Positions 7,505-49,497 of a DNA stretch of 60,218 nt are shown here, in pieces (position 1 is the first letter of the stretch; each line of letters opens with the position of its first letter). The DNA lies in NCBI GenBank assembly GCA_016219115.1, contig JACRCH010000139.1, positions 1 through 60,218 of the forward strand. Direction: 5' to 3'. This DNA is from Deltaproteobacteria bacterium (GTDB taxonomy: Bacteria > Desulfobacterota > GWC2-55-46). Under the pieces are notes generated by a model. The model had not been told where the DNA came from and did not search any database. It worked only from the letters and a program-made list of their open reading frames with translations. The position numbers and the translations under genes were made by a program.

Positions 7505-7780
7505 ATTTTCACTACATCCGTTTGAATCATCTCTAATACGTTATTCTTTGATTTTCATACCGCTGACGGATTGTTATTTTATGAAATCAGACTATTATAA
7601 AGGGGCGCGATAAGAAACAAGCCGTTATGGCGAGAGCGGCTCCGAGGCGGTGACGGCGGAAAGCAGTGAGCCCGCCGCAGGATTGAAGCGCCGTGGGTTG
7701 CGGAACGCTAAAAAAATCCGCCGGTAGCGCAAGCGGACCCGAATTGCAAAATTTAAGATAAAATAGTAGCTGGCGAATAT

Positions 7781-8164
7781 ATGATGGTCCGTTTCAATGA
7801 AGAATACGGCTCCCTGTCCGTCAGGATCTGCCCGGAATGCGAACTGGCCTTTTACGCCAGGGTCGACGGCAGTCTTATATGCCCGCACTGCGGCTACGCC
7901 TTCATCGAGAAGCGCGGCGCGCGGAGGTCCTGCAGGGAAGCCGACATTACCATCCTTTTAAAGGGCAGGAAGGTTCGCGCAAAGCTCAAGGATTACTCGG
8001 AGCGCGGGGCAAGGGTGGTGTTCAGGGGCGTGGGGGGCGGCATGGATGCGGACTCCGAAATCGAAATTGATATCCGCGAGCTGCATATCCACAGGAAGGC
8101 GCGCGCGGTATGGCTGAGGGAGGTCGACGGGTCTTGCGTATCAGCCGGATTCATACTGTTATGA
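7781..8164 (+). CDS. zinc-ribbon + PilZ domain protein (c-di-GMP receptor candidate)
   Basis: CPEC...CPHC ribbon followed by PilZ signatures RRSCR (RxxxR) and DYSERG (D/NxSxxG). Same architecture as 55364-55789. Confidence 0.7.
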   Translation: MMVRFNEEYGSLSVRICPECELAFYARVDGSLICPHCGYAFIEKRGARRSCREADITILLKGRKVRAKLKDYSERGARVVFRGVGGGMDADSEIEIDIRELHIHRKARAVWLREVDGSCVSAGFILL

Positions 8165-8268
8165 CCCCGTTGCCGCAAAATATTTAAAAAAACGAAGAGA
8201 CCGGGGAAAAGAACAATTTTCAGAGGCGCGCCAACATCAGAAACGGAAGGGACGGAACAAGCATCGAT

Positions 8269-8886
8269 ATGAGAACATTCAAAAACACAAAGAGATTGGC
8301 GACGGTCCTTTTGATATCGATGGCCTGGCTGGGCTTGGCCTTTCCGTCGTTCAGCCGGGCGGCGGGACCTCAGGCTCAGGAGCAGGCCGCATACGAATAC
8401 AGGATAGGACCTGAGGACGTCCTTGAGATATCCGTCTGGAAGAACGCGGAGCTCTCCAAGACGGTCACGGTGCGCCCCGACGGCAAGATATCCATGCCCC
8501 TCATAGGGGATATACAGGCCGCCGGGCTCACGCCCGATGAACTGCGCGACAAGATCGTATACAGGCTTAACGAGTACCAGGAGGCCGCGATAGCCTCGGT
8601 GATAGTGCAGTCCGTAAACAGCTACAGGATATTCATACTGGGCGAGGTCAAAACCCCGGGGACGTACCTGTTAAAGACCAATACGACGATCCTGCAGGCC
8701 ATCTCGCTCGCGGGCGGGTTCACGCAGTACGCCGCCAAGAACAAGATAGTGCTGGTGCGCAGGAACTTGACCGGCGGCGCCGGGGACGAAAGGACCGTGA
8801 TAAGTTTTTCGGACCTTGTTTACGGCGATGACAAGACGGACAAAAACCTGGTGTTGCAGCCTGGAGATACCATCTTTGTACCTTAA
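8269..8886 (+). CDS. polysaccharide export protein (Wza/EpsE-like, Poly_export + SLBB)
   Basis: Signal peptide, the YRIGPEDVLEISVW motif typical of Poly_export, and SLBB-like ...LQPGDTIFVP at the C-terminus. Confidence 0.8.
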   Translation: MRTFKNTKRLATVLLISMAWLGLAFPSFSRAAGPQAQEQAAYEYRIGPEDVLEISVWKNAELSKTVTVRPDGKISMPLIGDIQAAGLTPDELRDKIVYRLNEYQEAAIASVIVQSVNSYRIFILGEVKTPGTYLLKTNTTILQAISLAGGFTQYAAKNKIVLVRRNLTGGAGDERTVISFSDLVYGDDKTDKNLVLQPGDTIFVP

Positions 8887-10024
8887 TTCCGGAAAGATAG
8901 CGGCGACGGCCCTTACGGCGTTATCCCTGTGCCTGCCGGCCGCGGCGGCGGCGGAAGTCGTGGTCAAACCGGCGGTAACGGCCGGGATCAGGTATGACAG
9001 CAACGCCACGATAAGCGCCGCGAACGAACAGAAAAAGGACGATTTTATCGTCACATTGTCTCCGCAGTTCGATATCATCAACGACCGTCAGAAGATAGTC
9101 TTTGATTTCATGTACAGGGTTACGGGGTTGTATTACCTTAAAGACCCGCAACTCAACACAATAAACCACTTCGTGACCGCCGATATGAAGGCCGAGTATT
9201 CTCAGACGACGAAATTCGACATCTCCGACTCCTTCTCATACTTGAGGCAGTCGCTTCTGGCAAGCCAGACGAACATCCAGACCAGCCGTTACAATATCAT
9301 GGCGAACACGGCCACGCTCAGGATGGAGCATGAATTCACGCCAAAGACATCGATGACGGCCAACATATCCGACAACGTCTTGAAGTACGAAGACCCGGCC
9401 GCCTATGACACCAGGACGGATTCCGCTGGCGTCGCGGAGGTCTATAAGATAACGCCGGCCACTTCGACGGACGCGGGTTACACATTCACGAACTATTCAT
9501 TTGAACCCTCCGGGTCCACAAAAGGCATCCAGACGCATACGCTCAGGCTGGGGCTGACCGAGCAGTTCTCCCCTACCCTGACGTTCAATATTTTCGGATC
9601 AGCCGTATATCAGAGCGGAGCCGGAAACAGCCGCGACTGGGAGAGCGGGGCCTCGGTCACAAAGGCATTCATGAGGTCTACGCTCAGCGGCGGATACGCC
9701 AGGACGGTAGCGACGACGTCCGGGCTCACCAACACGCTGGGCATAAACCAGACATATTCGCTGAGCTACGACTACAGGACCTCTGAACGTTCGGACGCCA
9801 TGATTTACGGCGCTTACTCCAAAAACCGGACCAGCCCCGCTTCCGTGGACCTTGAGTCCTACAACGCGGGGCTCAGGTGGGCGTATCAAATAAGGGAGTG
9901 GCTCGCCATAGGCGCGGGATACGACCACTTCGACCAGCGTTCCCGCGGCTCGGTGGGGACGGACGTAAGAAGAGACCAGGTGTACGTCAGCGCAACCGTC
10001 ACCCCGTATGAATGGAGGTTTTAG
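8816..10024 (+). CDS. PEP-CTERM-locus outer-membrane beta-barrel protein (uncharacterised)
   Basis: Signal peptide ...ALTALSLCLPAAAAAE, amphipathic beta pattern and aromatic terminus ...TPYEWRF. Start uncertain: ATG 8816/8828 overlap the upstream gene, while TTG 8876 gives a canonical-length signal peptide. Confidence 0.65.
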   Translation: MFTAMTRRTKTWCCSLEIPSLYLNSGKIAATALTALSLCLPAAAAAEVVVKPAVTAGIRYDSNATISAANEQKKDDFIVTLSPQFDIINDRQKIVFDFMYRVTGLYYLKDPQLNTINHFVTADMKAEYSQTTKFDISDSFSYLRQSLLASQTNIQTSRYNIMANTATLRMEHEFTPKTSMTANISDNVLKYEDPAAYDTRTDSAGVAEVYKITPATSTDAGYTFTNYSFEPSGSTKGIQTHTLRLGLTEQFSPTLTFNIFGSAVYQSGAGNSRDWESGASVTKAFMRSTLSGGYARTVATTSGLTNTLGINQTYSLSYDYRTSERSDAMIYGAYSKNRTSPASVDLESYNAGLRWAYQIREWLAIGAGYDHFDQRSRGSVGTDVRRDQVYVSATVTPYEWRF

Positions 10025-11499
10025 CTTTGGAGACGAACGGCAACAACATAATCTACTACCTTGAGGTCTTCTACAGGAGCAAATGGAAGATCGTCATCCC
10101 GACCGTGGCATGCACCGTCATAGCCGCGGTCATAGCCATAAGCCTGCCGTCGAAATACCGCTCGTCGACGCTGATCCTGGTAGAGCAACAGCAGGTCCCC
10201 GAGGCTTATGTAACGCCGACGGACAAGACCCCGTTCGCCCAGAGGCTCAACACGATCAAGCAACAGATCATGAGCAGGACGAACCTCGAGAAGATAATAA
10301 ACGACTTCAGCCTCTACAGGAGATCTGAAGGCGGTCTGATATCCAGGATTTCAAGCAAGCTCGGCGGAACGCGGGCCGCTCCGGGCAAGGAAGCGTCGTA
10401 TGAGCGGATGGCCGGCGATATCGACGTCAAGGTCCTCGGCGACAGGAGGTCCGAAGACGCCTTCAGCATCAGCTACACCGGGACAAACCCTTACGTCACA
10501 ATGCAGGTGACAAACTCCATGGCCTCGCTGTTCATAGAACAGAGCCTCAAGACGCGCGAACAGTACGCCGAGGGCACCTCGGACTTCCTGTCCAACGAGC
10601 TTGAGAACGCGAAAAAGGAGCTCGAGGGGCTTGAAAAGGCCGTAAAGGATTTCAAGGAGAGGAACATGGGGAGGCTCCCTCAACAGCTGGAGGCCAACCT
10701 GCGGACCCTCGACCGTTTTCAGATGGAGGTGCAGACCACCGCTATCGAGCTCCGGAACGCGGAGGAGAGGAGGGCCGCCATCGAAACGCAGATCAGCCAG
10801 ACAGGCGCGGCCGGCCCCGGCGTTGTCCTCGCCCCGGAGGCCGAGCTTGACAGGCTTCAAAACGAACTGGCGCGCCTGTTGTCGATGTACAGGGATAACT
10901 ACCCCGACGTGGTCATAACCAGGAAGCGGATAGCGGAGCTCAAGGAGCTACTGGCCAAATCGAACAAGAACGCGAGCAAGGCCGATGAAGCGGATGGCGC
11001 GGATGCGGCCGCGCGCAACCCGCGGGCCTCTAGCGCCGTTGCCGCCGCCAACTCGCAGATAACCGCCCTCAAGCAGAGGATGTCCGACCTGAAGAAGCAG
11101 ATAGCCCTGTATGAAAAAAGGGTCGAGGAAGCGCCCGCGATGGAGCAGAGGTTCACCAACCTGCGCAGAGACTACGACATATCGCTCAAGAACTACCAGG
11201 ACCTGCTCGCTAAAAAGCTCAGCGCCAGGCTCGCCGAGAGCCTTGAGAAGAGGCAGAAGGGCGAGCGGTTCAGGGTGCTCGACTCGGCCAACCTCCCTGA
11301 GAGCCCGGTAAGCCCGAACAAGCCGCTCATAGTCCTCATCGGCCTTCTCGCCGGACTGGGAGCAGGGTGCGGACTGGTCTACGCATTGGAGTTCCTGAGC
11401 CCGTCATTCAGGAACAAAGAGGAGCTAGAAGCGGCCCTGGGCGCTCCAGTGCTTGCCGTCATCCCGATATTCCTGGATAAACAGGGCGGAAACAACTGA
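10012..11499 (+). CDS. polysaccharide chain-length determinant / co-polymerase (Wzz/GumC type, PEP-CTERM locus subfamily)
   Basis: N-terminal TM within a Wzz-like segment (KWKIVIPTVACTVIAAVIAISLPSKYRSSTLILV), a long coiled-coil periplasmic region, and a C-terminal TM PLIVLIGLLAGLGAGCGLVYA. No kinase domain. Confidence 0.8.
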   Translation: MEVLALETNGNNIIYYLEVFYRSKWKIVIPTVACTVIAAVIAISLPSKYRSSTLILVEQQQVPEAYVTPTDKTPFAQRLNTIKQQIMSRTNLEKIINDFSLYRRSEGGLISRISSKLGGTRAAPGKEASYERMAGDIDVKVLGDRRSEDAFSISYTGTNPYVTMQVTNSMASLFIEQSLKTREQYAEGTSDFLSNELENAKKELEGLEKAVKDFKERNMGRLPQQLEANLRTLDRFQMEVQTTAIELRNAEERRAAIETQISQTGAAGPGVVLAPEAELDRLQNELARLLSMYRDNYPDVVITRKRIAELKELLAKSNKNASKADEADGADAAARNPRASSAVAAANSQITALKQRMSDLKKQIALYEKRVEEAPAMEQRFTNLRRDYDISLKNYQDLLAKKLSARLAESLEKRQKGERFRVLDSANLPESPVSPNKPLIVLIGLLAGLGAGCGLVYALEFLSPSFRNKEELEAALGAPVLAVIPIFLDKQGGNN

Positions 11500-11537
11500 A
11501 GCGGGCTTTCGGCGATAGCCGTGGAAGGAATCTTGGA

Positions 11538-12539
11538 ATGAAGAATCTACTGAGCGGACTGTTCGGAAAAAATACGAATACCGTAGAGCGCGCCGTACAG
11601 CAGGCGCCTCAGGCGGTGCCGCCCAGGCCCAGGGTATGGGCCGTCGGCGGATGCAAGGGCGGGGTCGGAAAGAGCGTTGTGGCGTGCAACCTCGCCGTGA
11701 TGCTCGCAAAGACCGGCAAGAGGGCGCTCCTCGTGGACGCCGACCTCGGGGCCGCCAACCTCCATACCCTTATAGGGGAGACGGAGGCCAAAAGAACGCT
11801 CTCCGGCTTTATCAAGTCCGAGTTCGACGATATAAGGCTGGCCATAGGCAAGACCGAAATACCGAGGTTGGACATCATAAGCGGGGCAAGGGATTCACTC
11901 GACGTGGCCAGCCTCAACGAGCATAAGGTGGCGAGGCTCCGCGAGGGGATCGGGAACGTCGCGTACGATTACGTCGTACTGGACACGGCCCCGGGGACGA
12001 CAAACGTCATACTCGATATATTCATGACGGCCAATGACGGACTTCTGGTGGTGACACCTGAGCCGACGTCCGTGGAGAACGCCTACAGGTTCATCAAGTG
12101 CCTCATCCTCAGGCGGATAAAGAAGATCCATGAATCCGATGAATCCGGAAGGCTCAAGAGTCTCCTTCAGAAGATACTGCACGAGAAAAAGGATCTAAGG
12201 CCGAGGACCGTCGGCAACCTCCTCGATGAATTGAGGGCGTACGACCATGGTCAGGGCGCCGTGCTCAGGGAACTGCTCAGGAACACGCGCCTCCATATCG
12301 TCGTAAATCAGGCGAGAAGGCCGGAGGACGGCGCCCTCGGATATTCCATGGAGCGGGCCTGCCACGACTTCTTCGGCCTCAGGGTGAGCTTCCTCGGCCA
12401 CATACCTTACGGCGACAGCGTCGTGGAGTCGGTGCGGAACAGGAAACCTCTTATAATAAATAACGGCGACAGCGAGCCGGCGAAAAGCATGGAAGGGATC
12501 TTTTACAGCCTGCTCCAGAGGGAAATAAAACCGATATAA
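11538..12539 (+). CDS. MinD/ParA-family (FlhG/BcsQ-like) P-loop ATPase
   Basis: Deviant Walker A GGCKGGVGKS, Walker A' LLVDADLG, Walker B VVLDTAPG. No TM segment and no tyrosine cluster. Confidence 0.75.
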   Translation: MKNLLSGLFGKNTNTVERAVQQAPQAVPPRPRVWAVGGCKGGVGKSVVACNLAVMLAKTGKRALLVDADLGAANLHTLIGETEAKRTLSGFIKSEFDDIRLAIGKTEIPRLDIISGARDSLDVASLNEHKVARLREGIGNVAYDYVVLDTAPGTTNVILDIFMTANDGLLVVTPEPTSVENAYRFIKCLILRRIKKIHESDESGRLKSLLQKILHEKKDLRPRTVGNLLDELRAYDHGQGAVLRELLRNTRLHIVVNQARRPEDGALGYSMERACHDFFGLRVSFLGHIPYGDSVVESVRNRKPLIINNGDSEPAKSMEGIFYSLLQREIKPI

Positions 12540-12558
12540 TCATAGCAGAGGGTCGATC

Positions 12559-13545
12559 GTGCATATGAATCTGAGAACCGTGAAAAACTACTACGAGATC
12601 CTTGAGGTCACTCCCGATGCCGCGCAAGACGAAATAGCGGAGGCTTACAGGAAGGCGCTTCAGGCGTACAACGACGAATCGCTGGCGGCGTACTCGCTCT
12701 ACTCGATCGGCGAGAAAAAGGCGATGATCGAGAAGATCTCCGAGGCCTACGACACGCTCAAGGACGAGGATAAAAAAAGGGAGTACGACGCGCGGCTCGC
12801 CGACGCGGACAAAAAAGACGGCATGGACGCCCCGGAGTTCGTCCTCTTCGACGAGGCCTCGGAGCTGGACGGCATGGATAATACCGTCAGCTTCAAAAAA
12901 CCGCTCGTCGTGATGGGAGACACCGACCCTGTGGCGGCCGAACAGTACCGAGTGCTGTACACAAGGCTCAGCCAGTTGAAGCAGAAGGACTCCCTGAGCG
13001 CCTTCGCCGTGACGAGCGCCGTTAAGGGAGAGGGCAAGACGGTGCTCTCCCTGAACCTGGCATATATCATAGCCGAGGAATTCAAGAAGCGGTGCATACT
13101 GGTCGAGTGCGACTTCAAGAAGCCTTCGGTCGCCTCGTACTTCGACCGGAGAGGGCCCGAGCACGGCCTTGTCGACATCCTCAAGGGGGAGGCCGACCTC
13201 GACGACGCGGTTACCAGGCTCGATGGGAGCGACAACCTGTTTTTCCTGCGGGCCGGCAAAAACGTGAAGAACTCATCCGAGCTCCTCGGGTCCGCGAGGA
13301 TGGAGGAGGTGACGGATGAGCTTGAAAAGGGGTTTGAATTCCTGATTCTCGACTGTCCGCCCATACTGCCGCTCGCGGACATGAACATCATCTCCAGGCT
13401 CGCCGACGGGCTGGTCATGGTTGTAAGGGCCGAGAGCACGCCCAGGAACATGGTGCGCTCGGCCATGGACTCGATAAAGGAGGGCAGGTTCATAGGCGTC
13501 GTGCTGAACGCGGCCCATACCTCCCTTAAAAAATACTACTACTGA
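12559..13545 (+). CDS. J-like domain fused to BY-kinase-type ATPase (tyrosine autokinase candidate)
   Basis: The N-terminus NYYEILEVTPDAAQDEIAEAYRKALQAYNDES...ISEAYDTLKDEDKKREYD is J-domain-like but lacks HPD. The C-terminal half has Walker A VKGEGKT, A' LVECD and B LILDCPP, and the protein ends ...KKYYY. Confidence 0.7.
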   Translation: MHMNLRTVKNYYEILEVTPDAAQDEIAEAYRKALQAYNDESLAAYSLYSIGEKKAMIEKISEAYDTLKDEDKKREYDARLADADKKDGMDAPEFVLFDEASELDGMDNTVSFKKPLVVMGDTDPVAAEQYRVLYTRLSQLKQKDSLSAFAVTSAVKGEGKTVLSLNLAYIIAEEFKKRCILVECDFKKPSVASYFDRRGPEHGLVDILKGEADLDDAVTRLDGSDNLFFLRAGKNVKNSSELLGSARMEEVTDELEKGFEFLILDCPPILPLADMNIISRLADGLVMVVRAESTPRNMVRSAMDSIKEGRFIGVVLNAAHTSLKKYYY

Positions 13546-13563
13546 GACGGGGCATGATCTGAC

Positions 13564-14958
13564 ATGTATCTCTTATTCAACAGATATGTAGCGCCGCAGA
13601 CGGTATTCCTGGCGCTCTCAGAGACAGCGCTGGTGTTTTTAACGGTGGTCCTGACGGCGGCCATACGGTTCTCTTTCATCGGGTCTTACGTATATGCGTA
13701 CGACCCCACGCTCCTGAAGACAATCGTAATGACCCTTACATACACCGCCGTATTCTACTACTTCGGCCTCTACAGCTCGGAGTTTTACCATCCAGGCCGC
13801 CAGATGATAATGAAGCTCCTCCAGGCGACCGCCGTATCGGCCGTGATCCTCTTCGGCATATACTTCATCTTCCCGTCCCTGAAGACGTGGCGCGGGATAC
13901 TGCTGGCCAACATGTTCCTGCTCCCTCTGGGGGTAGTGGTATGGAGGACCCTGCTGGCCGGCAGGCTCATGCCCGAGGCGCCGGAGAAAAGGGTGCTGAT
14001 AATAGGCACCGGGGAACTCGCCAGAAAGATAGGCACGGACATATACAGGAGACGCGGCCACGGGCTCAGGCTCACGGGCTTTATCGACGACGACCCGTCC
14101 AAGGTGGGCCAGTCCATCGTAAACCCCGGGGTCATAGGCTGCTTCGGCGACATCGCCGACATAGTCAAGGGCGAAAAGATAGAACGCATAATCATAGCGC
14201 TCCCGGACAGGAGGGCGCGTCTGCCGATGAGGGCGCTCCTGGACTGCAAGTTGAGGGGCGTCAACGTGGAGGAGGGGGAGACCTTCGAGGAGCGCATGAC
14301 CGGGAAGATCCCGCTCGACAACCTCAAGCCGAGCTGGATGGTCTTCTCCGACGGCTTCAAGTCCCTTCGGACCAGAAAGATAATGAAGCGGATTTTCGAC
14401 CTCGCAATATCAATGGCCGGGCTCGCCGTATGCGCCCCCGTCATGCTTATTACGGTGGTCCTGATAAAACTCGGTTCCAGGGGCCCGGTCGTATTCAAGC
14501 AGGCCAGGGTCGGCGAGCACGGCAAGGAGTTCAACATCTACAAGTTCCGCTCCATGAAACAGGACGCCGAGAGCAAGACCGGGCCGGTCTGGGCCTCTAC
14601 CGACGACGACAGGGTCACGCGCGTCGGCAGGATAATAAGGAAACTGAGGATAGACGAGCTCCCGCAGCTCATAAACATAATAAAAGGCGACATGAGCTTC
14701 GTCGGCCCGCGCCCGGAGCGCGCCTTTTTCGTAGATAAGCTCAAGGAGATAGTCCCGTACTACGAAATCAGGACGGTCGTAAAGCCGGGGGTCACGGGCT
14801 GGGCGCAGATCAAGTATCCCTACGGCGCCAGCGTCGAGGACGCCGTTGAAAAACTCCAGTACGACATCTACTACATCAAGAACATGTCCCCCTTGCTCGA
14901 TCTGATGATATTCTTCTTCACGATCAAAGTGGTGCTCACCGGCGAGGGGGCGAGGTAG
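13564..14958 (+). CDS. priming polyprenyl-phosphate sugar phosphotransferase (EpsB/WbaP type)
   Basis: N-terminal TM bundle, a central Rossmann-like segment (VLIIGTGELARKIG) and a C-terminal Bac_transf domain with DELPQLINIIKGDMSFVGPRPE. Confidence 0.85.
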   Translation: MYLLFNRYVAPQTVFLALSETALVFLTVVLTAAIRFSFIGSYVYAYDPTLLKTIVMTLTYTAVFYYFGLYSSEFYHPGRQMIMKLLQATAVSAVILFGIYFIFPSLKTWRGILLANMFLLPLGVVVWRTLLAGRLMPEAPEKRVLIIGTGELARKIGTDIYRRRGHGLRLTGFIDDDPSKVGQSIVNPGVIGCFGDIADIVKGEKIERIIIALPDRRARLPMRALLDCKLRGVNVEEGETFEERMTGKIPLDNLKPSWMVFSDGFKSLRTRKIMKRIFDLAISMAGLAVCAPVMLITVVLIKLGSRGPVVFKQARVGEHGKEFNIYKFRSMKQDAESKTGPVWASTDDDRVTRVGRIIRKLRIDELPQLINIIKGDMSFVGPRPERAFFVDKLKEIVPYYEIRTVVKPGVTGWAQIKYPYGASVEDAVEKLQYDIYYIKNMSPLLDLMIFFFTIKVVLTGEGAR

Positions 14959-15145
14959 TAACGTACCGGCGCAGAGCGCCTTGAACATGCACGGCGAACT
15001 CGCTCGGCCCTCGGCTTGGGGGACGCGGATAAGGAACAGATACATTCTTATATGTATAAGGCTCCACGCGGCCTGGGCCCAGTGGAGCTTCAACGTCCAA
15101 TAACCTCTCTTTTGGCGCGATATCGATTGAAAATCGCGCCTCAAG

Positions 15146-15157
15146 GGCGGTAGCATT
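15146..15157 (+). promoter_or_regulatory. ops-like element (GGCGGTAGCATT)
   Basis: The 8-mer core GGCGGTAG is exact and the last two positions deviate (TT vs TG). It lies 12 nt upstream of the NusG-paralog start, just 3' of a perfect 8-bp hairpin (15114-15121 / 15133-15140). Confidence 0.45.
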
Positions 15158-15168
15158 TTTAAAAACCC

Positions 15169-15669
15169 ATGAACGCCTCTATGCTGAACTGGTATCTGGT
15201 CTATCTTAAGCCGAGGAACGAAGACAAGATATCCGGTAGACTCTCGGATTGCGGGTTCGAGGTCTTCAATCCGAAGCTGAAGGAACGCAGGTTCATTAGA
15301 AGGAAGCTTGGCGACGTTATCTCCGCGTTGTTCCCCGGCTACATCTTCGTCAGGTTCGATTACCCTTCGGACTACCGCCTGATCAGCTACACAAGGGGGG
15401 TCAAGAAGGTCGTCGGGGCAGAGAACTCCCCTACCCCGGTGCCTCAGGCCATAGTAGACTCCATACGCGCCAGGCTGGTTGAAGGAGTGGCCGTGGTAAA
15501 GGCCCATAAGTTCACAGCCGGCGAAGCGGTGATGATCCAGGGCGGGCCGTTCAAGGGGCTCGACGCCATCTTTGAAAAAGAGATGAAGGGCATGGAACGG
15601 GTCTGCGTTTTATTAAGGGAGATAAACGCGCGGGTCGTGGTGGACGGCGCGGCGCTTGTAACGCCGTGA
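15169..15669 (+). CDS. NusG-family specialised antiterminator paralog (RfaH/UpxY-like)
   Basis: 166 aa. NGN-type start WYLVYLKPRNEDKISGRL and KOW motif FTAGEAVMIQGGPFKGLDAIFEKE. It is located inside a polysaccharide locus, not next to secE/rplK. Confidence 0.8.
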   Translation: MNASMLNWYLVYLKPRNEDKISGRLSDCGFEVFNPKLKERRFIRRKLGDVISALFPGYIFVRFDYPSDYRLISYTRGVKKVVGAENSPTPVPQAIVDSIRARLVEGVAVVKAHKFTAGEAVMIQGGPFKGLDAIFEKEMKGMERVCVLLREINARVVVDGAALVTP

Positions 15670-15805
15670 GATGCCGTTATTTTCTAAGGCGCGCGGTTAA
15701 AGCATCCGGCCTTTTCGCGCGATATAAATAAGAGACAGTTGCTCCATAAACAAATAATACTTTCCCCTCCAACAGGCGTTTTATACAATTAAAATGCACC
15801 TGAAT

Positions 15806-15817
15806 GGCGGTAGCCTG
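15806..15817 (+). promoter_or_regulatory. ops element, exact consensus match (GGCGGTAGCCTG)
   Basis: Matches GGCGGTAGnnTG at all 10 fixed positions, on the coding-sense strand. It sits in the 268-bp leader between the NusG paralog and the asnB-like gene. Confidence 0.6.
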
Positions 15818-15937
15818 TCCGGATATCGATAGTAAACCTCGACGGGAGCCTCTCCGCCGGGAAGAACGCTGAGATATTCTCTCCAAAACCACGCAAGGCG
15901 GGTCTTTGCGGATTAAACGCCCAGGAAAATTAAAAAC

Positions 15938-17869
15938 ATGTGCGGCATAGCCGGTTTCCTCAATTTAAATGACGGTAAGGACGCGTCCATAGCGACCCTT
16001 AAAAGGATGCTGTCTTCAATAAGGCATCGCGGCCCGGACGGCGCCGGAGTCTATTACGACGGCAGGGCCTGCCTCGGGCACGCCAGACTGAGCATCATAG
16101 ACCTGGCCGGCGGCACTCAGCCCATGTGCAACGAGGACAAGAGCGTCTGGATAACATTCAACGGTGAGATATTCAACTACATAGAGCTGAGGGAGGGTCT
16201 CCTTAAAAAAGGGCACGTACTCAAGACGCACTCCGACACAGAGGTGATCATCCACCTCTATGAAGACCACGGCGCGGAATGCCTTAAATACCTTAACGGC
16301 CAGTTCGCCTTCGCCGTCTGGGACAAAAACAAAGGCGAGCTGTTCCTCGCCAGGGACAGGCTTGGCATCCGCCCTCTCTTTTACGCCGGCTCAGGGGGAG
16401 CGTTCTTCTTCGCCTCGGAGATAAAGGCGATCTTCGCCGCGAACGTAATTGAAAGGGCCATGGACCCCGATGCCCTCGATGAGATTTTCACGCTCTGGTG
16501 CACGGTGCCGCCGAGGACCGCCTTCAAGGGCGTCTCCGAGCTCCCGCCGGCGCATTACATGACTGTTAAAAACGGCGTGGCCTCCATAAAACAGTACTGG
16601 GACGTCGACCTTTCAGGCTGTGGCGAGGAATTGGGCTTTGAGGACTCCATGGAGGCGCTTAAGGGCCTCCTCATAGACGCCACAAGGCTCCGGTTAAGGG
16701 CCGATGTCCCGGTGGGCGCGTACCTGAGCGGCGGCCTCGATTCCTCCGTCACCACGGCCCTCATTCGCAACTTCAGCTCCGCCCCCCTCCAGACGTTTTC
16801 CGTGGCGTTTGAAGACGGGGATTACGATGAGAGCGTTTACCAGAAGGAGATGGCCCGGGCTCTCGGCACCGAGCACCATGAGATAAGGTGCTCTTATTCG
16901 GATATAAGCGAAAACTTCGCCAGGGTCATCTGGCACACGGAAAAACCGATCCTCAGGACAGCCCCCGTCCCCCTATTCCTCCTGTCCGGGCTCGTTCGGA
17001 AAAACGGCTTCAAGGTCGTCCTCACGGGAGAAGGGGCCGATGAGGTACTCGGAGGCTACGACATATTCAGGGAGACGAAGATACGCCAGTTCTGGGCGCG
17101 GTTCCCGGACTCCGCGCACCGCCCCATGCTCCTTAAAAAACTCTATCCGTATCTCCCCGCCTTTCAGGGGCAGTCAAAATTTTACAGAGAGGCATTCTTC
17201 AATACCGGCGCCGCCGGGACCTCGGATATCCTTTTTTCCCACAGGCCCAGATGGCGGACGGCGTCCAGGAACAGACTGTTCTTCTCGGACTGGATGAGGG
17301 GCATGTTAAAAGGGAGCGCCGAGGATGCGTACGCGAAGACCCTGCCCGCGGGGTTCGAGGGGTGGCCTCCTGTGGCGCGCGCGCAGTACATAGAGCTTAA
17401 GAACCTGTTGCCGGGCTATATACTGTCGTCGCAGGGGGACAGGGTCTCGATGGCCCATTCAATAGAGGGGCGGTTTCCGTTCCTCGACCACCGCGTCGTG
17501 GAGTTCTGCTCGCGCCTGCCGTTGCGCTACAAGATACGCGGACTGAACGAGAAGTTCATACTGAAAAAGGCGATGAAGCCCCACCTCCCTGAAAATATAG
17601 TGAAACGGACGAAACAGCCCTATCTCGCCCCTGACGGCAAAAGTTTTTTCAAGAGCGGCAAGGCGTCCGATTATGTGGAGGATATGCTCTCGGATGAACG
17701 CATAACGGAATACGGGTATTTCAACCCTGGACCAGTGCGTCTCCTTGTGAACAAGTGCAGGAGGGGCGCGGTTACCGGGTTCAGGGACAATATGGCGCTC
17801 GTGGGGATACTGTCCGTCCAGATCCTCCACCGGCAGTTCCTTAAGGGCCCGGTCGCCGCCGCCCTTTGA
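15938..17869 (+). CDS. asnB: glutamine-hydrolysing asparagine-synthase-family amidotransferase (exosortase-system associated)
   Basis: Ntn start MCGIAGF and the PP-loop-like motif VGAYLSGGLDSS. 643 aa, typical AsnB architecture. Confidence 0.85.
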   Translation: MCGIAGFLNLNDGKDASIATLKRMLSSIRHRGPDGAGVYYDGRACLGHARLSIIDLAGGTQPMCNEDKSVWITFNGEIFNYIELREGLLKKGHVLKTHSDTEVIIHLYEDHGAECLKYLNGQFAFAVWDKNKGELFLARDRLGIRPLFYAGSGGAFFFASEIKAIFAANVIERAMDPDALDEIFTLWCTVPPRTAFKGVSELPPAHYMTVKNGVASIKQYWDVDLSGCGEELGFEDSMEALKGLLIDATRLRLRADVPVGAYLSGGLDSSVTTALIRNFSSAPLQTFSVAFEDGDYDESVYQKEMARALGTEHHEIRCSYSDISENFARVIWHTEKPILRTAPVPLFLLSGLVRKNGFKVVLTGEGADEVLGGYDIFRETKIRQFWARFPDSAHRPMLLKKLYPYLPAFQGQSKFYREAFFNTGAAGTSDILFSHRPRWRTASRNRLFFSDWMRGMLKGSAEDAYAKTLPAGFEGWPPVARAQYIELKNLLPGYILSSQGDRVSMAHSIEGRFPFLDHRVVEFCSRLPLRYKIRGLNEKFILKKAMKPHLPENIVKRTKQPYLAPDGKSFFKSGKASDYVEDMLSDERITEYGYFNPGPVRLLVNKCRRGAVTGFRDNMALVGILSVQILHRQFLKGPVAAAL

Positions 17870-22281: not shown

Positions 22282-23115
22282 ATGTACAACGCGATTACAA
22301 TTGACGTGGAAGACTACTTCATGGTCTCGGCCTTTTCCAACGTCGTCAGCTTCGAGGACTGGACAAAATATGAAATCCGCGTCGAGCAGAATACGCGGAA
22401 GATACTCGACCTTTTCGCAAGGCACGGCGTGAGGGCGACCTTTTTCATCCTCGGATGGATCGCGGAGCGCGATCCAGGACTTATCAGGGATATCCGTTCG
22501 GCCGGACATGAGGTCGCCAGCCACGGCTACAACCACAGGCTGGTGTACGACCTCACCGCCGGGGAGTTCAGAGAGGATATCCGCAGGGCGAAGGGCATAC
22601 TGGAAGGCATTACGGGAACGCCGGTCCTCGGGTTCAGGGCCGCCAGCTACTCCATCGTCAAAAGAAGCCTCTGGGCCATAGACGTACTGATAGAGGAGGG
22701 CTTCAAGTACGACTCCAGCATCTTCCCCATCCATCACGACAGGTACGGCCTTCCTGGAGCCGAGCGCTTCCCGCATAAAATCAAGAGAAGCGCCGGGACG
22801 CTCTTTGAGTTCCCCCCTTCCACCTACAGGCTCTTCGGCCAGAACGTCCCCATAGCCGGTGGGGGATATCTGAGGTTCTTCCCCCTCTGGGCCACCAAGG
22901 CCATGGTGAAAAGGATAAACGAAAAGGAAAAACAGCCCGTCAACTTCTATCTGCACCCCTGGGAGATAGACACCGATCAACCCAGGATGAACGGACGCCG
23001 CCTCTCGGAGTTCAGGCATTATATAAACCTGAAGACCACCATGCCGAAACTTGAATCGCTGACAAAGGAATTCAAATTCAAACCGATATCCGAGATCATC
23101 GCGTCTTATGAATAG
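22282..23115 (+). CDS. XrtA/PEP-CTERM-system polysaccharide deacetylase
   Basis: Starts MYNAITIDVEDYF, with a NodB-like ASHGYNH motif. ATG 22282 is preferred over TTG 22267. Confidence 0.8.
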   Translation: MYNAITIDVEDYFMVSAFSNVVSFEDWTKYEIRVEQNTRKILDLFARHGVRATFFILGWIAERDPGLIRDIRSAGHEVASHGYNHRLVYDLTAGEFREDIRRAKGILEGITGTPVLGFRAASYSIVKRSLWAIDVLIEEGFKYDSSIFPIHHDRYGLPGAERFPHKIKRSAGTLFEFPPSTYRLFGQNVPIAGGGYLRFFPLWATKAMVKRINEKEKQPVNFYLHPWEIDTDQPRMNGRRLSEFRHYINLKTTMPKLESLTKEFKFKPISEIIASYE

Positions 23116-24655
23116 CGAAGTCCAGTCATACCCGTTGGCGGAGATCTTCCGTTTCCGGAAGAAGGCGGTGACGCTGGTATTTATTCTCGCCGCCGTGTTC
23201 CTGTTTGGATTCTACGGCGCGGCGAGCTCTCTCGTCGCGACATGGAACGGGAGGGACGACTATTCCCACGGCTTCCTGGTGCCTCTTATAAGCCTCTATT
23301 TCGTCTGGGCCGACAGACGAAGGCTCGGCTCCCTGACACCGGCCCCCAACCTGGCCGGCGGGCTCTTCCTCACCCTTGCCGGAGCGCTCATGAACGCCGC
23401 CGGCGGCATCGGCGGAGTGATGCTTGTCCAGCAGATATCCATACTCGTCATAATCCCCGGCCTTGTGCTCCTACTGCTCGGGACGCGGTTTTTAAAGGCC
23501 CTTGCCCTGCCCTTGCTCTATCTTGTCCTTATGGTGCCTTTGCTGGACCCGGTCATTAAAAGGATCCAGTGGCCCTTCCAGCTCCTCTCGGCCGCCGCCG
23601 CATCGGATGTGTTGACGCTTCTGGGCGTACCTGTTTTCAACCGCGCCCAGTATCTCGAACTGCCGACCGTCACGCTCGAAGTGGCCGACGTGTGCAGCGG
23701 CGTCCGTTACCTCGTATCCATCATAGCGCTGACGATACCGCTGGCATACTTCACCCAGAGGGGATGGAAGAAAAAGGGCCTGTTGTTCGTCCTTGCCGTT
23801 CTCATCGGCATTTTCACCAATATATTGCGTGTTATCCTTATCGGCCTCTGGTCTTATTTCGGCGGCACGGTCGTCCACGGCCCGATGCATCTGTTCCAGG
23901 GGCTCTTTGTCTCGGTCGTAGGGATGGTCTTCCTTTTCATCATCGCCATGGCGCTGTCCAGGGCCCCGTCCGCTGATGCGCATATAGAGGACCAGGCCCT
24001 GAAAAATGAGGAGGCCGGGCCAGTCTTAAACGCAAGCCGGTTCAACATCGCTTATTTCATCGCGATAGCAATGTTGCTCGGCCAGCTCGTCTATCTGCAT
24101 ACCTACACATCCAGGCCCGTACCTGTGAAGAGAAACTTGAATGCCATGCCCATGGATATCGGTGGATGGACGGGCATGGATATAAGCAGGACGGAGGCGC
24201 CTTTTTCCCCTCCGAGCGTCGATTCTGAGCTGGCAAGGATATACCGGAACGCCTCAGGCCGTGCGATAACGCTCTATGTCGGGTATTACGCGACCCAGAT
24301 GCAGGACAAGGAGATGATCCATGACAGCATGAGGAAGCTCTATGAGGACGCCGGTAATATCAAGTTGCCGACGGCGTCCATGGGCCAGGTATCCGTCAAC
24401 GAAACCACGGTTAAAGCGGCAGGCGGCGGCACGATGGCGCTTTACTGGTACGATATCAACGGACGGATACTCTCCAGCAATTACACGGCGAAGCTATATA
24501 CGGCGGCGGGAGGCCTTTTCAAAAGGCGCACAAACGGCGCTGTAGTCATAACGTCGACCATTCCCGCCAACCCGGCTGATTCCGAGGCGGCGCTCAACGA
24601 CGAACTCGATTTCGCCGGGAAGTTGCTACCGCTCCTCCGGGACTACCTCCCGTGA
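23108..24655 (+). CDS. xrtA: exosortase fused to an EpsI-family domain
   Basis: Polytopic N-terminal half carrying the exosortase signature residues in ADVCSGVRYL (Cys), FTNILRVILIG (Arg) and HGPMHLFQG (His). After one more TM, the ~200-aa C-terminal part resembles EpsI. The XrtA subtype is inferred from neighbours (prsT, FemAB, deacetylase). Confidence 0.8.
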   Translation: MNSEVQSYPLAEIFRFRKKAVTLVFILAAVFLFGFYGAASSLVATWNGRDDYSHGFLVPLISLYFVWADRRRLGSLTPAPNLAGGLFLTLAGALMNAAGGIGGVMLVQQISILVIIPGLVLLLLGTRFLKALALPLLYLVLMVPLLDPVIKRIQWPFQLLSAAAASDVLTLLGVPVFNRAQYLELPTVTLEVADVCSGVRYLVSIIALTIPLAYFTQRGWKKKGLLFVLAVLIGIFTNILRVILIGLWSYFGGTVVHGPMHLFQGLFVSVVGMVFLFIIAMALSRAPSADAHIEDQALKNEEAGPVLNASRFNIAYFIAIAMLLGQLVYLHTYTSRPVPVKRNLNAMPMDIGGWTGMDISRTEAPFSPPSVDSELARIYRNASGRAITLYVGYYATQMQDKEMIHDSMRKLYEDAGNIKLPTASMGQVSVNETTVKAAGGGTMALYWYDINGRILSSNYTAKLYTAAGGLFKRRTNGAVVITSTIPANPADSEAALNDELDFAGKLLPLLRDYLP

Positions 24656-47679: not shown

Positions 47680-47706
47680 CCGCCGACAGGAGTCGGTGGT
47701 TTCTTT
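47680..47706 (+). terminator. intrinsic terminator candidate after the radical SAM gene
   Basis: Stem CCGCCGAC (47680-47687) / GTCGGTGG (47692-47699) with one G-U pair, loop AGGA, then TTTCTTT. Confidence 0.5.
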
Positions 47707-48513: not shown

Positions 48514-49497
48514 ATGCTTTCACATTACAAACGATCTAATAGAATTTGGATAACATGGGAAAATCAAAGGAGGAATCATACTCTTAGTAAGGCTCTCAAT
48601 GCAAAATTGTTCCAGTTAGATTTCAAGACCAACAGGCCTTTGAGGTATATCCAATCAGCGTACTCGACGCTAATTACGTTTCTCAATGAACGGCCGGACA
48701 CAATTTTTGTGCAGAACCCTTCCTTGGTACTTGCAGCATTGGCCGTAAATTATGGTCGTATCGCCAGGGTACCGGTCGTTGTTGACGCCCATAACGCCGG
48801 GGTCTTCCCTTTTGACGGGAAAAAATGGTGGGCGAACAGATTGGCCGACTATTTGTTCAGACACGCGGCCCTTACGATCGTAACAAATCGAGCCCTCTCG
48901 GAACATATCAAGCAAAGAGGCGGTAAAACCGCGATACTGCCAGACCCACTCCCTGAATTCGGACGGATCGACGCAACAAAACCGTTGATAGGACGGGTCC
49001 ATGTATTATTTATCTGTTCCTTCGCGAGCGATGAGCCTTACATGGAAGTGATAGAGGCGGGAAGGCTGCTAAGCAAGGATATCATCATATACATAACCGG
49101 AAGATACAAAGGCGATGTGAACGGACTAAAGAAGAGTATGCCTGAGAATGTCATTTTAACCGGGTTTTTGCCGGAGCACGACTTCATCCAATTGCTCCAT
49201 TCCGTAGACATAGTCATAGACCTTACCACGCGGGAGGACTGCCTTTTATGCGGCGCTTATGAGGCCGTCTCGGCCGAAAAGGTCCTGATAGTTTCGGCAA
49301 CGAGGGCCTTGAAAGAATACTTTCATAAAGGCACGCTGTATACTCAAAACGACCGTGAAGACCTGGTAAGGCAGATAGAGCGGGCTATCAGCAATAAGGT
49401 CAGCCTTGCCACGGATATCAAGGAACTCAAAAAAGAAAAGACTACAGAGTGGGCCTTGAAAAAGGCTGAATTCGAGGCGGACTTGGAAAAATTCTAA
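48514..49497 (+). CDS. putative glycosyltransferase (GT-B-like), weak call
   Basis: 327-aa ORF, last gene of the + array. Rossmann-like halves (e.g. VHVLFICSFASDEPY, VILTGFLPEHDF). No diagnostic motif identified. Confidence 0.4.
   Translation: MLSHYKRSNRIWITWENQRRNHTLSKALNAKLFQLDFKTNRPLRYIQSAYSTLITFLNERPDTIFVQNPSLVLAALAVNYGRIARVPVVVDAHNAGVFPFDGKKWWANRLADYLFRHAALTIVTNRALSEHIKQRGGKTAILPDPLPEFGRIDATKPLIGRVHVLFICSFASDEPYMEVIEAGRLLSKDIIIYITGRYKGDVNGLKKSMPENVILTGFLPEHDFIQLLHSVDIVIDLTTREDCLLCGAYEAVSAEKVLIVSATRALKEYFHKGTLYTQNDREDLVRQIERAISNKVSLATDIKELKKEKTTEWALKKAEFEADLEKF

Follow-up and report, generated by a model that had tools for sequence, protein, structure and literature searches.

Recruitment of a specialized NusG paralogue to transcribing RNA polymerase has so far been described in detail only for RfaH of Escherichia coli and UpxY of Bacteroides (PMC7593976, PMC11685472). 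E. coli RfaH is encoded by a monocistronic gene and acts in trans at ops, a 12-nucleotide (nt) sense-strand element ahead of long polysaccharide operons. In the RfaH:ops crystal structure the DNA is contacted by K10, H20, R23 and R73, and a flipped-out T6 occupies a pocket of H20, R23, Q24 and R73 (PMC5995543). Substitution at C3, G4, G5, A7 or G8 reduces or abolishes recruitment, and position 6 is the most tolerant central position: G4C, G5A, A7T and G8C abolish recruitment of RfaH, T6A lowers it about threefold (PMC5995543). A conserved stem-loop in the E. coli JUMPstart region was noted in 2010 (PMC2864571). The Bacteroides recruitment site, opsX, combines a NusA-enhanced RNA pause hairpin, a non-template DNA hairpin YGCGNAGCR and upstream duplex DNA (PMC11685472). 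RfaH homologues are reported in 23 phyla, about 95% of them in Proteobacteria, with recruitment detailed for E. coli only, and a published stepwise model has ops contacts and autoinhibition arising together, late, within the Proteobacteria (PMC7593976). The subject of the present analysis is a NusG paralogue gene flanked by two ops-type elements in an exosortase-containing extracellular polysaccharide (EPS) locus of a Deltaproteobacteria bacterium (Desulfobacterota; GenBank assembly GCA_016219115.1). The locus lies on a stretch of 60,218 nt, contig JACRCH010000139.1, hereafter the window. Judged on comparative evidence, which makes up the whole case, paralogue and element are very probably a real and previously undescribed member of a known control system, in which a NusG-paralogue antiterminator is loaded at an ops-type pause site.

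The open reading frame (ORF) 15181-15669 likely encodes an RfaH-type specialized NusG paralogue, and the two flanking elements would be the sites at which it is loaded onto transcribing RNA polymerase. A covariance model of the element (R1, seeded with six instances) was searched over 835 kb on both strands, and its scores are given with the principal features:

15114-15140, + strand: stem-loop 1, a perfect 8-bp stem GGCGCGAT (15114-15121)/ATCGCGCC (15133-15140) with an 11-nt loop
15146-15157, + strand: ops-like copy 1, GGCGGTAGCATT, identified from sequence; covariance model match 15130-15161, 12.5 bits, E 3.7
15181-15669, + strand: RfaH-like NusG paralogue of 162 amino acids (aa) with NGN and KOW domains; 166 aa when read from a lineage-specific ATG at 15169
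15773-15802, + strand: stem-loop 2 from RNA folding, CAG plus GCGUUUUA pairing with UAAAAUGC plus (after an AC bulge) CUG, 6-nt loop
15806-15817, + strand: ops copy 2, GGCGGTAGCCTG, exact GGCGGTAGnnTG; covariance model match 15791-15821, 21.1 bits, E 0.014 in the 835-kb search

An earlier sequence-only reading of the window had reported both ops-type copies, the second of them exact and on the sense strand, and a perfect 8-bp hairpin just before the first; these sequences are confirmed, with both copies on the + strand and a gap of 5 nt between hairpin and copy 1. The exact 9-mer GGCGGTAGC occurs only twice in the window on either strand, as the two copies that flank the paralogue gene, and (C)TNAAN precedes both. 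In-window counts alone are not significant: the two 9-mers compare with 0.48 expected (12 of 100 shuffles reach at least two), and one-mismatch 12-mers number six against 3.6 expected. What makes the copies significant is where they are placed and that other genomes conserve them, and on that ground, not on motif frequency, the earlier claim that the placement is unlikely to be chance holds. A one-mismatch site GCCGGTAGCGCA at 7720-7731 (+), listed in the same reading, is present as sequence and is rejected as an element. It gives no covariance model match even at E≤10, has no preceding stem-loop and spacer, and lacks the extended motif because it lies inside its own TCCGC...GCGGA stem. It is best regarded as a random match, such sites occurring at about chance frequency; the R1 search of the window returns copies 1 and 2 only.

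The two copies differ in strength. Copy 2 sits 121 nt ahead of the ATG of the first downstream gene and has the pause-type bases G2 = G(-10), T11 = T(-1) and G12 = G(+1). Copy 1 has an ops-identical core with T12 in place of the pause-type G12, and its consensus-pause bases are thus incomplete; most relatives have YTG at the 3' end of the element. Its spacer is 5 nt, and it ends 23 nt 5' of the conserved start codon of the paralogue (15181), not 12 nt before the ATG as first described. Both elements are almost unchanged in the closest relatives (74-92% protein identity), while the intergenic DNA around them has diverged; the copy 1 block TCAAGGGCGGTAGC(A/T)TTTTTAAAAAC is kept in all four close sequences. 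The copy 2 element is the sole intergenic part conserved out to relatives with 50-57% protein identity. Copy 1 is absent from these, and there the paralogue begins 7-25 nt after the priming glycosyltransferase gene (L001, L002). Copy 1 is the weaker copy, and the autoregulation that had been suggested is plausible, if less certain, as this copy is weak and kept in the nearest relatives only.

Element and paralogue travel together. The homologue set comprises 80 loci encoding relatives of the paralogue, picked via the protein alone, from metagenome-assembled genomes (MAGs) of Thermodesulfobacteriota/'Deltaproteobacteria' (50-57% identity) and from Nitrospirota (~40%), Acidobacteriota, Verrucomicrobiota and others. 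The genomic comparison covered the 60-kb window and +/-6 kb flanks of the relatives. In a forward test, about 20 of the 80 loci have exact GGCGGTAGC on the paralogue strand at a distance of 70-280 nt from the gene, on either side of it, and GGCGGCAGC variants occupy the same place in many more. The 26 best hits of the R1 search (E<0.3; 20 non-seed) all share the strand of the paralogue and lie no more than about 500 nt from the gene. The reverse test began from the element: metagenome contigs, an independent collection, were searched with the 22-nt pattern GCACCNGAANGGCGGYAGCYTG, which returned 80 loci. A NusG paralogue adjoins the element on the same strand in 61 of these (upstream of it in 29, downstream in 32) and on the opposite strand in none; the MAG and metagenome loci count as non-independent samples. 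Strand-specific co-occurrence of motif and paralogue is found in Thermodesulfobacteriota/'Deltaproteobacteria', Nitrospirota, Acidobacteriota and Verrucomicrobiota, and L014, L017, L018 and L037 also have the element directly upstream of the paralogue gene.

A broader hidden Markov model (HMM) finds no hidden paralogues in the 19 metagenome loci that lack one. These are taken as candidate trans targets, those on short contigs as truncated; L084, L095, L100, L114, L129, L131, L137, L143 and L146 have enough flank. Six of them were annotated (L084, L114, L129, L131, L143, L146). In five the site precedes Wzx, GT1, ABC-2 (Wzm-like) or formyltransferase genes, and in L129 a GGDEF gene, which suggests that paralogue-less sites are additional trans targets. 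In some loci, with or without the paralogue, a MarR/winged-helix gene is directly beside the element (5020-5682 in L012; the upstream ORF in L114).

The conserved unit is larger than the 12-mer. A stem-loop lies 5' of the 12-mer at both window copies. Stem-loop 1 (RNA fold -18.1 kcal/mol, z -2.3) ends 5 nt before copy 1 and, in close relatives with diverged flanks, carries a compensated G:C to A:T change (GGCGCAAT/ATTGCGCC in L081 and L082). Stem-loop 2, an 11-bp interrupted stem, ends 3 nt (AAT) before copy 2. Close relatives show compensated changes at both window copies. In relatives the stem in most instances ends 1-3 nt 5' of G1, most commonly 3 nt, and its sequence is varied (for example CCGGT/ACCGG, CTGGT/ACCAG, CCGGC/GCCGG, AAACGG/CCGTTT, CAGGTCAT/ATGACCTG and GGTCATGGAG/CTCCGTGGCC). 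Stems of at least 5 bp occur in 63% of 112 instances, versus 27% when the 5' part is shuffled. Stem covariation was computed on a model-based alignment, A5, in which 86% of cells are paired against 70.5% in shuffled controls and 16-48% with partners slid, and in which five of six pairs have both-side changes; A5 was fitted to the model, so that these pairing figures lean towards structure. In the 3' arm and spacer, GCACCNGAAN, not only the pairing but also the sequence is conserved, and the longer conserved sequence in relatives reads TGCACC(G/T)GAA(T/G)-GGCGG(T/C)AGC(C/T)TG. On these comparisons the element is a composite and not a bare 12-mer: a stem-loop in which changes are compensated is followed by a spacer, usually of 3 nt, and then by GGCGG(T/C)AGC(C/T)TG.

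Bases G1, G2, C3, G4, G5, A7 and G8 are invariant, and within the core only position 6 varies; the invariant bases include those needed for recruitment of E. coli RfaH. Base 6 co-varies with residue 73 of the paralogue. Among the genome loci Arg73 is present in 17/19 with T6 and 2/12 with C6, and among the metagenome loci in 20/25 with T6 and 4/36 with C6 (Fisher p 7.5e-8). C6 otherwise goes with Asn, Pro, His, Thr, Gln or Ala at residue 73. The statistics are Fisher tests and identity clusters, without a tree: after clustering, p is 2e-4 at 70% identity and 0.018 at 60%, and at 50%, where 10 clusters are left, the association is not significant. This co-variation is the most direct sign pointing to the paralogue itself as the reader of the element.

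The protein is closest to RfaH without belonging to its equivalog family by score. The ORF 15169-15669 matches the Pfam NusG NGN family at 8e-18. The family had been recognized in the sequence-only reading; the length given there, 166 aa, comes down to 162, as the conserved start is the second ATG, 15181, because homologues mostly begin MLNWY and, of the three closest relatives, two either lack the first ATG or have it out of frame. No Shine-Dalgarno sequence precedes 15181. Placement relative to UpxY, LoaP and others is by HMM scores. RfaH is the top NCBIfam family, under its equivalog cut-off, at 105.6 bits (cut-off 144.5; the other model of the TIGR01955/NF006534 pair gives 91.4 versus 124), ahead of UpxY NF033644 (72.2 bits, cut-off 100), LoaP NF033641 (46.5, cut-off 125) and NusG (46.0, cut-off 135.7). 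The best sequence match in the PDB is E. coli RfaH (2.8e-12; aligned residues 1-152 of 162). Relative to that protein K10, T72-R73-G74, F130 and R138 are kept, and H20 is changed to R, R23 to D, Q24 to C, E48 to S and I93 to V; K10 is kept in 72 of 91 element-linked paralogues. Position 73 of this numbering is residue 72 of the window protein when counting begins at 15181.

An AlphaFold2 model, computed from a shallow alignment of 18 sequences on which its all-beta domain rests, has a predicted local distance difference test score (pLDDT) of 83.7, with an NGN fold and an all-beta C-terminal domain of 4-5 strands (pLDDT 75-84). In Foldseek the model matches fully recruited RfaH (8phk_P, 6c6s_D) over its whole length, 160-165 columns, whereas autoinhibited RfaH (5ond, 2oug, 8pfg) matches over the N-terminal domain only. 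The alpha-helical C-terminal domain that characterizes RfaH autoinhibition is absent from the model, and E48 of the autoinhibitory salt bridge is Ser. Because AlphaFold predicts the C-terminal domain to be all-beta, the paralogue is probably not autoinhibited. It stands outside the RfaH equivalog family by score, and probably by autoinhibition; most likely it works like RfaH.

By homology with RfaH/ops and UpxY/opsX, transcription of the sites, pausing, binding and antitermination would proceed as follows. (i) The transcribed stem-loop would form a pause hairpin in the nascent RNA, with its 3' end about 13-15 nt behind the RNA 3' end. (ii) RNA polymerase would pause at T11/G12 of the ops-like sequence, the core of which would supply both an elemental pause (G-10, T-1, G+1) and a non-template hairpin. 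(iii) In the transcription bubble, non-template GCGGTAGC would fold into a C3:G8/G4:A7 hairpin, exposing G5 and T6. (iv) The N-terminal domain of the paralogue would read G5/T6 with its conserved K10 and R73. (v) The paralogue would bind the clamp helices, displacing housekeeping NusG. (vi) It would then ride the polymerase across the downstream genes (15938-49497), suppressing pausing and Rho-dependent termination, also in the AT-rich Wzx/Wzy part and at a hairpin at 47680-47699. The beta-barrel KOW domain would probably couple polymerase to ribosomes. As the gene adjoins the main site, the protein would be made where it is loaded, a cis advantage, and the weaker copy ahead of the paralogue's own start codon, which has no Shine-Dalgarno sequence, may provide positive feedback and ribosome recruitment. 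A dedicated ops-recruited antiterminator for a long polysaccharide operon had been the central proposal of the sequence-only reading, and motif-paralogue co-occurrence, the invariant bases and the base-6 co-variation all support it.

The system combines traits of the RfaH branch with traits of the UpxY branch. With E. coli RfaH/ops it shares a homologous protein and an identical 12-mer, GGCGGTAGnnTG, which likewise precedes a long polysaccharide operon on the sense strand; the invariant and the tolerant positions agree with those of RfaH mutagenesis, and, as in JUMPstart, a stem-loop stands just 5' of ops. Unlike E. coli RfaH, the paralogue is encoded inside its own target locus, has a C-terminal domain predicted to be all-beta with E48 lost, and does not conserve H20, R23 and Q24. 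The E. coli JUMPstart 39-mer, found in >5000 genomes, has a stem CTGG/CCAG that ends 1 nt before ops; the present element has a usual spacer of 3 nt and another stem sequence, and is not matched by the Rfam JUMPstart model. The T6 to C variant, common here and paired with a non-Arg residue 73, is a further departure from E. coli ops, and the hosts are Thermodesulfobacteriota, Nitrospirota, Acidobacteriota and Verrucomicrobiota in place of the Gammaproteobacteria that host RfaH.

As with UpxY/opsX, the paralogue is encoded in the polysaccharide operon that it would control, the site is composite with GCG..AGC stems and often lies just upstream of the paralogue gene, and sequence conservation reaches upstream of the core. 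In contrast to that system, the core is exactly the E. coli GCGGTAGC and not YGCGNAGCR, the RfaH model fits better than the UpxY model (105.6 versus 72.2 bits, both below cut-off), and the main site of the window is downstream of the paralogue gene. No UpxZ-like inhibitor gene is seen adjoining the paralogue, whose neighbours encode a priming glycosyltransferase and an AsnB-like amidotransferase. Predicted monomorphic cis-encoded RfaH homologues (bioRxiv 2026, PMC13015549) resemble the paralogue in their predicted beta C-terminal domain and in the position of the gene in or next to a long envelope-polysaccharide operon; compared with the classes of PMC13015549 and PMC7593976, the gene is here accompanied by a strongly conserved ops-type element. 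Set against the stepwise model, the clade would have ops contacts without autoinhibition and outside the Proteobacteria (PMC7593976). LoaP (Bacillus) and TaA (Myxococcus) are likewise cis-encoded processive antiterminators for long biosynthetic operons, with a leader hairpin implicated for LoaP, but they act on polyketide clusters and are not known to use an ops-type core, and the LoaP score is 46.5 against a cut-off of 125; TaA was compared by description only.

Several results weigh against the proposed RfaH-type reading. The protein scores under the RfaH trusted cut-off, and two of the four ops-contacting side chains are not conserved (K10 and R73 are kept; H20 is R and R23 is D). The shallow alignment behind the all-beta prediction, the fitting of A5 to the model and the loss of the base-6 association at 50% identity belong here too. 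Copy 1 has no G12, scores weakly, is kept in the nearest relatives only and overlaps a weak sigma-70-like match, TTGAAA-18-TAGCAT (15127-15156). Consensus scans for sigma-70 promoters and intrinsic terminators over 7000-51000 stay at background level and place neither a start site nor a terminator between the modules upstream and downstream of the paralogue. An Rfam scan finds no JUMPstart or other family at either site: RF01707 (JUMPstart) gives no match at E≤10 in 14900-16000, and none at E≤5 in five related loci, one of which has canonical GGCGGTAGCGTG. By inspection, no sigma-54 -24/-12 match lies near either site, and a -10-like TACAAT at 15784-15789, considered as a promoter, is rejected, being the loop of stem-loop 2.

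Of the other explanations, the one that survives best is confined to the upstream copy. Here 15114-15157 would be mainly the promoter of the paralogue gene (TTGAAA-18-TAGCAT) with a very short leader, which the want of a Shine-Dalgarno sequence before 15181 would suit, and a functional ops would be found in the downstream copy alone. The missing G12, the 5-nt spacer, the score of 12.5 bits and the absence of this copy from L001 and L002 fit such a promoter as well. It is nevertheless unlikely, if a serious contender: the -35 hexamer varies in close relatives (CTAAAA/AAAAAA) while the stem is compensated and the ops core invariant, the promoter scan is at background (one found, 0.8 expected), and an element directly upstream of the paralogue is a normal arrangement elsewhere, seen in about half of the instances (32/61 reverse-test loci, and the four genome loci named above).

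It is distinctly improbable that the paralogue recognizes the nascent RNA, either the stem-loop or GGCGGUAGC as RNA or both, as proposed for LoaP; the outcome would still be antitermination. For LoaP, use of a hairpin in the nascent RNA is reported (PMC11685472). A stem-loop kept by pairing and not by sequence fits an RNA structure, the paralogue lacks R23 and Q24 of the E. coli DNA pocket, and the base-6/residue-73 co-variation cannot discriminate, since the RNA has the sequence of the non-template DNA. The 8-nt core GCGGTAGC is, however, identical to the non-template hairpin of E. coli, the invariant bases match those of RfaH DNA recognition and residue 73 lines the T6 pocket of the DNA complex. 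The LoaP model also scores far below RfaH (46.5 versus 105.6 bits), and in Bacteroides the RNA of the pause hairpin is itself not the recognition determinant (PMC11685472).

There is only a slight chance that the element is a DNA site of another regulator, or an alternative-sigma promoter, merely linked genetically to the paralogue. Conservation of GCACCNGAAN in sequence and the MarR/helix-turn-helix genes beside the element in some loci would accord with it. Stem covariation argues instead for a single-stranded structure, no sigma-70 or sigma-54 geometry matches, and the site is tied to this protein by a core identical to that of ops and by a base 6 that co-varies with a paralogue residue; conservation upstream of the core is explained in Bacteroides by contact of the paralogue with upstream duplex DNA (PMC11685472). 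Chance matches in a G+C-rich window, for which the 12 of 100 shuffles might speak, can be dismissed as already contradicted by position and strand specificity, by 26/26 model hits and 61/80 reverse-test loci, and by both copies being retained in close relatives whose flanking DNA has diverged.

The paralogue gene lies between two blocks of genes and beside a conserved non-coding stretch:

7781-14958, + strand: upstream module of PilZ-like, export, outer-membrane, chain-length determinant, two ATPase/tyrosine-kinase-like and priming glycosyltransferase genes
15680-15735, + strand: non-coding block directly after the paralogue stop codon, 5' of stem-loop 2 (alignment A7)
15938-49497, + strand: downstream array of 33.6 kb and about 31 genes, co-directional and almost gapless (ORF map and family matches)

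The upstream module ends 222 nt before the conserved start of the paralogue; genes for a PrsT-like TPR protein and a LuxR-type response regulator precede the PilZ-like gene in locus order. The downstream array contains genes for an AsnB-like amidotransferase, an acyl carrier protein, two acyl-CoA ligases, a WbuX-like protein, a deacetylase, an exosortase, FemAB, an aminotransferase and many glycosyltransferases, and its distal genes encode Wzx, GT1, a Wzy-like polymerase, a B12/radical-SAM enzyme, a methyltransferase and GT4, ending at 49497. This 33.6-kb operon, 15938-49497, is the likely target. The exosortase (23108-24655, +), which has a fused EpsI domain, scores 571.6 bits with the exosortase W model NF038142 (cut-off 425) and 184.2 bits, under the cut-off of 208, with the XrtA model. 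By these family models it is XrtW-type and not XrtA, and the XrtA context given in the sequence-only reading has to be replaced; several accessory genes nevertheless pass XrtA-system models, namely TIGR03013, TIGR03006, TIGR03019 and PrsT.

Gene order is widely kept. The order paralogue-[element]-AsnB/deacetylase-exosortase-ligases recurs in L001-L006, L020, L024, L028, L081 and L083, and the full order chain-length/tyrosine kinase/priming glycosyltransferase/(deacetylase)/paralogue/[element]/AsnB or deacetylase/exosortase/ligases extends from the lineage of the window to Nitrospira. The large biosynthetic half of the locus begins at the element. Operons of other types also carry the cassette at their head: in L017 ops and the paralogue are followed by nucleotidyltransferase, epimerase, C-methyltransferase and dTDP-sugar epimerase genes (a deoxysugar operon), and in L012 it heads a Wzm/Wzt-type O-antigen-like operon. 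It is for this reason a general polysaccharide-operon module and not specific to exosortase loci.

Some further features of the locus deserve mention. The block 15680-15735 is nearly invariant in the three closest relatives and not kept in more distant ones. Scan and inspection find no sigma-70 or sigma-54 consensus match in it and RNA folding no signal (z -0.07); it could be a promoter or a regulator site. A strong hairpin at 15059-15090 (+; -19.4 kcal/mol, z -2.7) lies about 100 nt after the priming glycosyltransferase gene and has no T-run. Its stem changes look compensated in L081 (alignment A6), and a role in processing or stability is possible, as is one as a leaky stop separating the two modules. 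The distal 42-50 kb are AT-rich (GC 0.35-0.46 versus about 0.55 elsewhere) and look like a horizontally acquired variable part. Within them a terminator-like hairpin at 47680-47699 (+; 8 bp, six of them G:C, followed by TTTCTTT) stands in the 88 nt that separate the last two genes of the array from those ahead of them, and an antiterminator would have to read through it. In the upstream module a J-domain (DnaJ N-terminus) is fused to an ATPase resembling EPS-export tyrosine autokinases (12559-13545, +), an arrangement kept in L081 (377-1357). The first gene there (7781-8164, +) has a borderline PilZ match (22.7 bits, cut-off 22.5), which hints at a cyclic di-GMP input, and one paralogue-less metagenome site lies ahead of a GAF-GGDEF gene. 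The sole Rfam match in the window, an S-adenosylmethionine (SAM) riboswitch (RF00162, 224-345, -, 82.5 bits versus a gathering threshold of 44.4), is unrelated.

The comparison bears on how RfaH-type control evolved. Somewhat short of even confidence, recognition of the GCGGTAGC hairpin can be proposed to be an old or widely transferred module, with cis-encoded, non-autoinhibited paralogues in at least four other phyla, rather than a late proteobacterial refinement coupled to autoinhibition. Its code would be Arg73-T6 and Asn/Pro/His/Thr73-C6, and some of the paralogues would also act in trans. If true, the window would hold a 'missing link' between UpxY/opsX-type and RfaH/ops-type control, and a cis-encoded, probably non-autoinhibited paralogue that retains ops would bear on the published order of RfaH evolution. 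The natural ops variants paired with protein variants (T6/R73 versus C6/non-R73) would be a ready data set for the recognition code.

For the EPS loci themselves, the founding paper on PEP-CTERM systems does not mention NusG or antitermination and places regulation at initiation, through PrsK/PrsR with sigma-54 (PMC1569441). A literature search found no paper linking RfaH to exosortase, and the present system, if true, would be the first case in which control of transcription elongation is described for exosortase EPS loci. In environmental and wastewater bacteria, Nitrospira among them, formation of flocs and of the biofilm matrix is driven by exosortase/PEP-CTERM loci. A 30-kb biosynthetic half would then depend on an elongation factor loading at one short site, and that site would offer a simple handle by which EPS production may be predicted or engineered.

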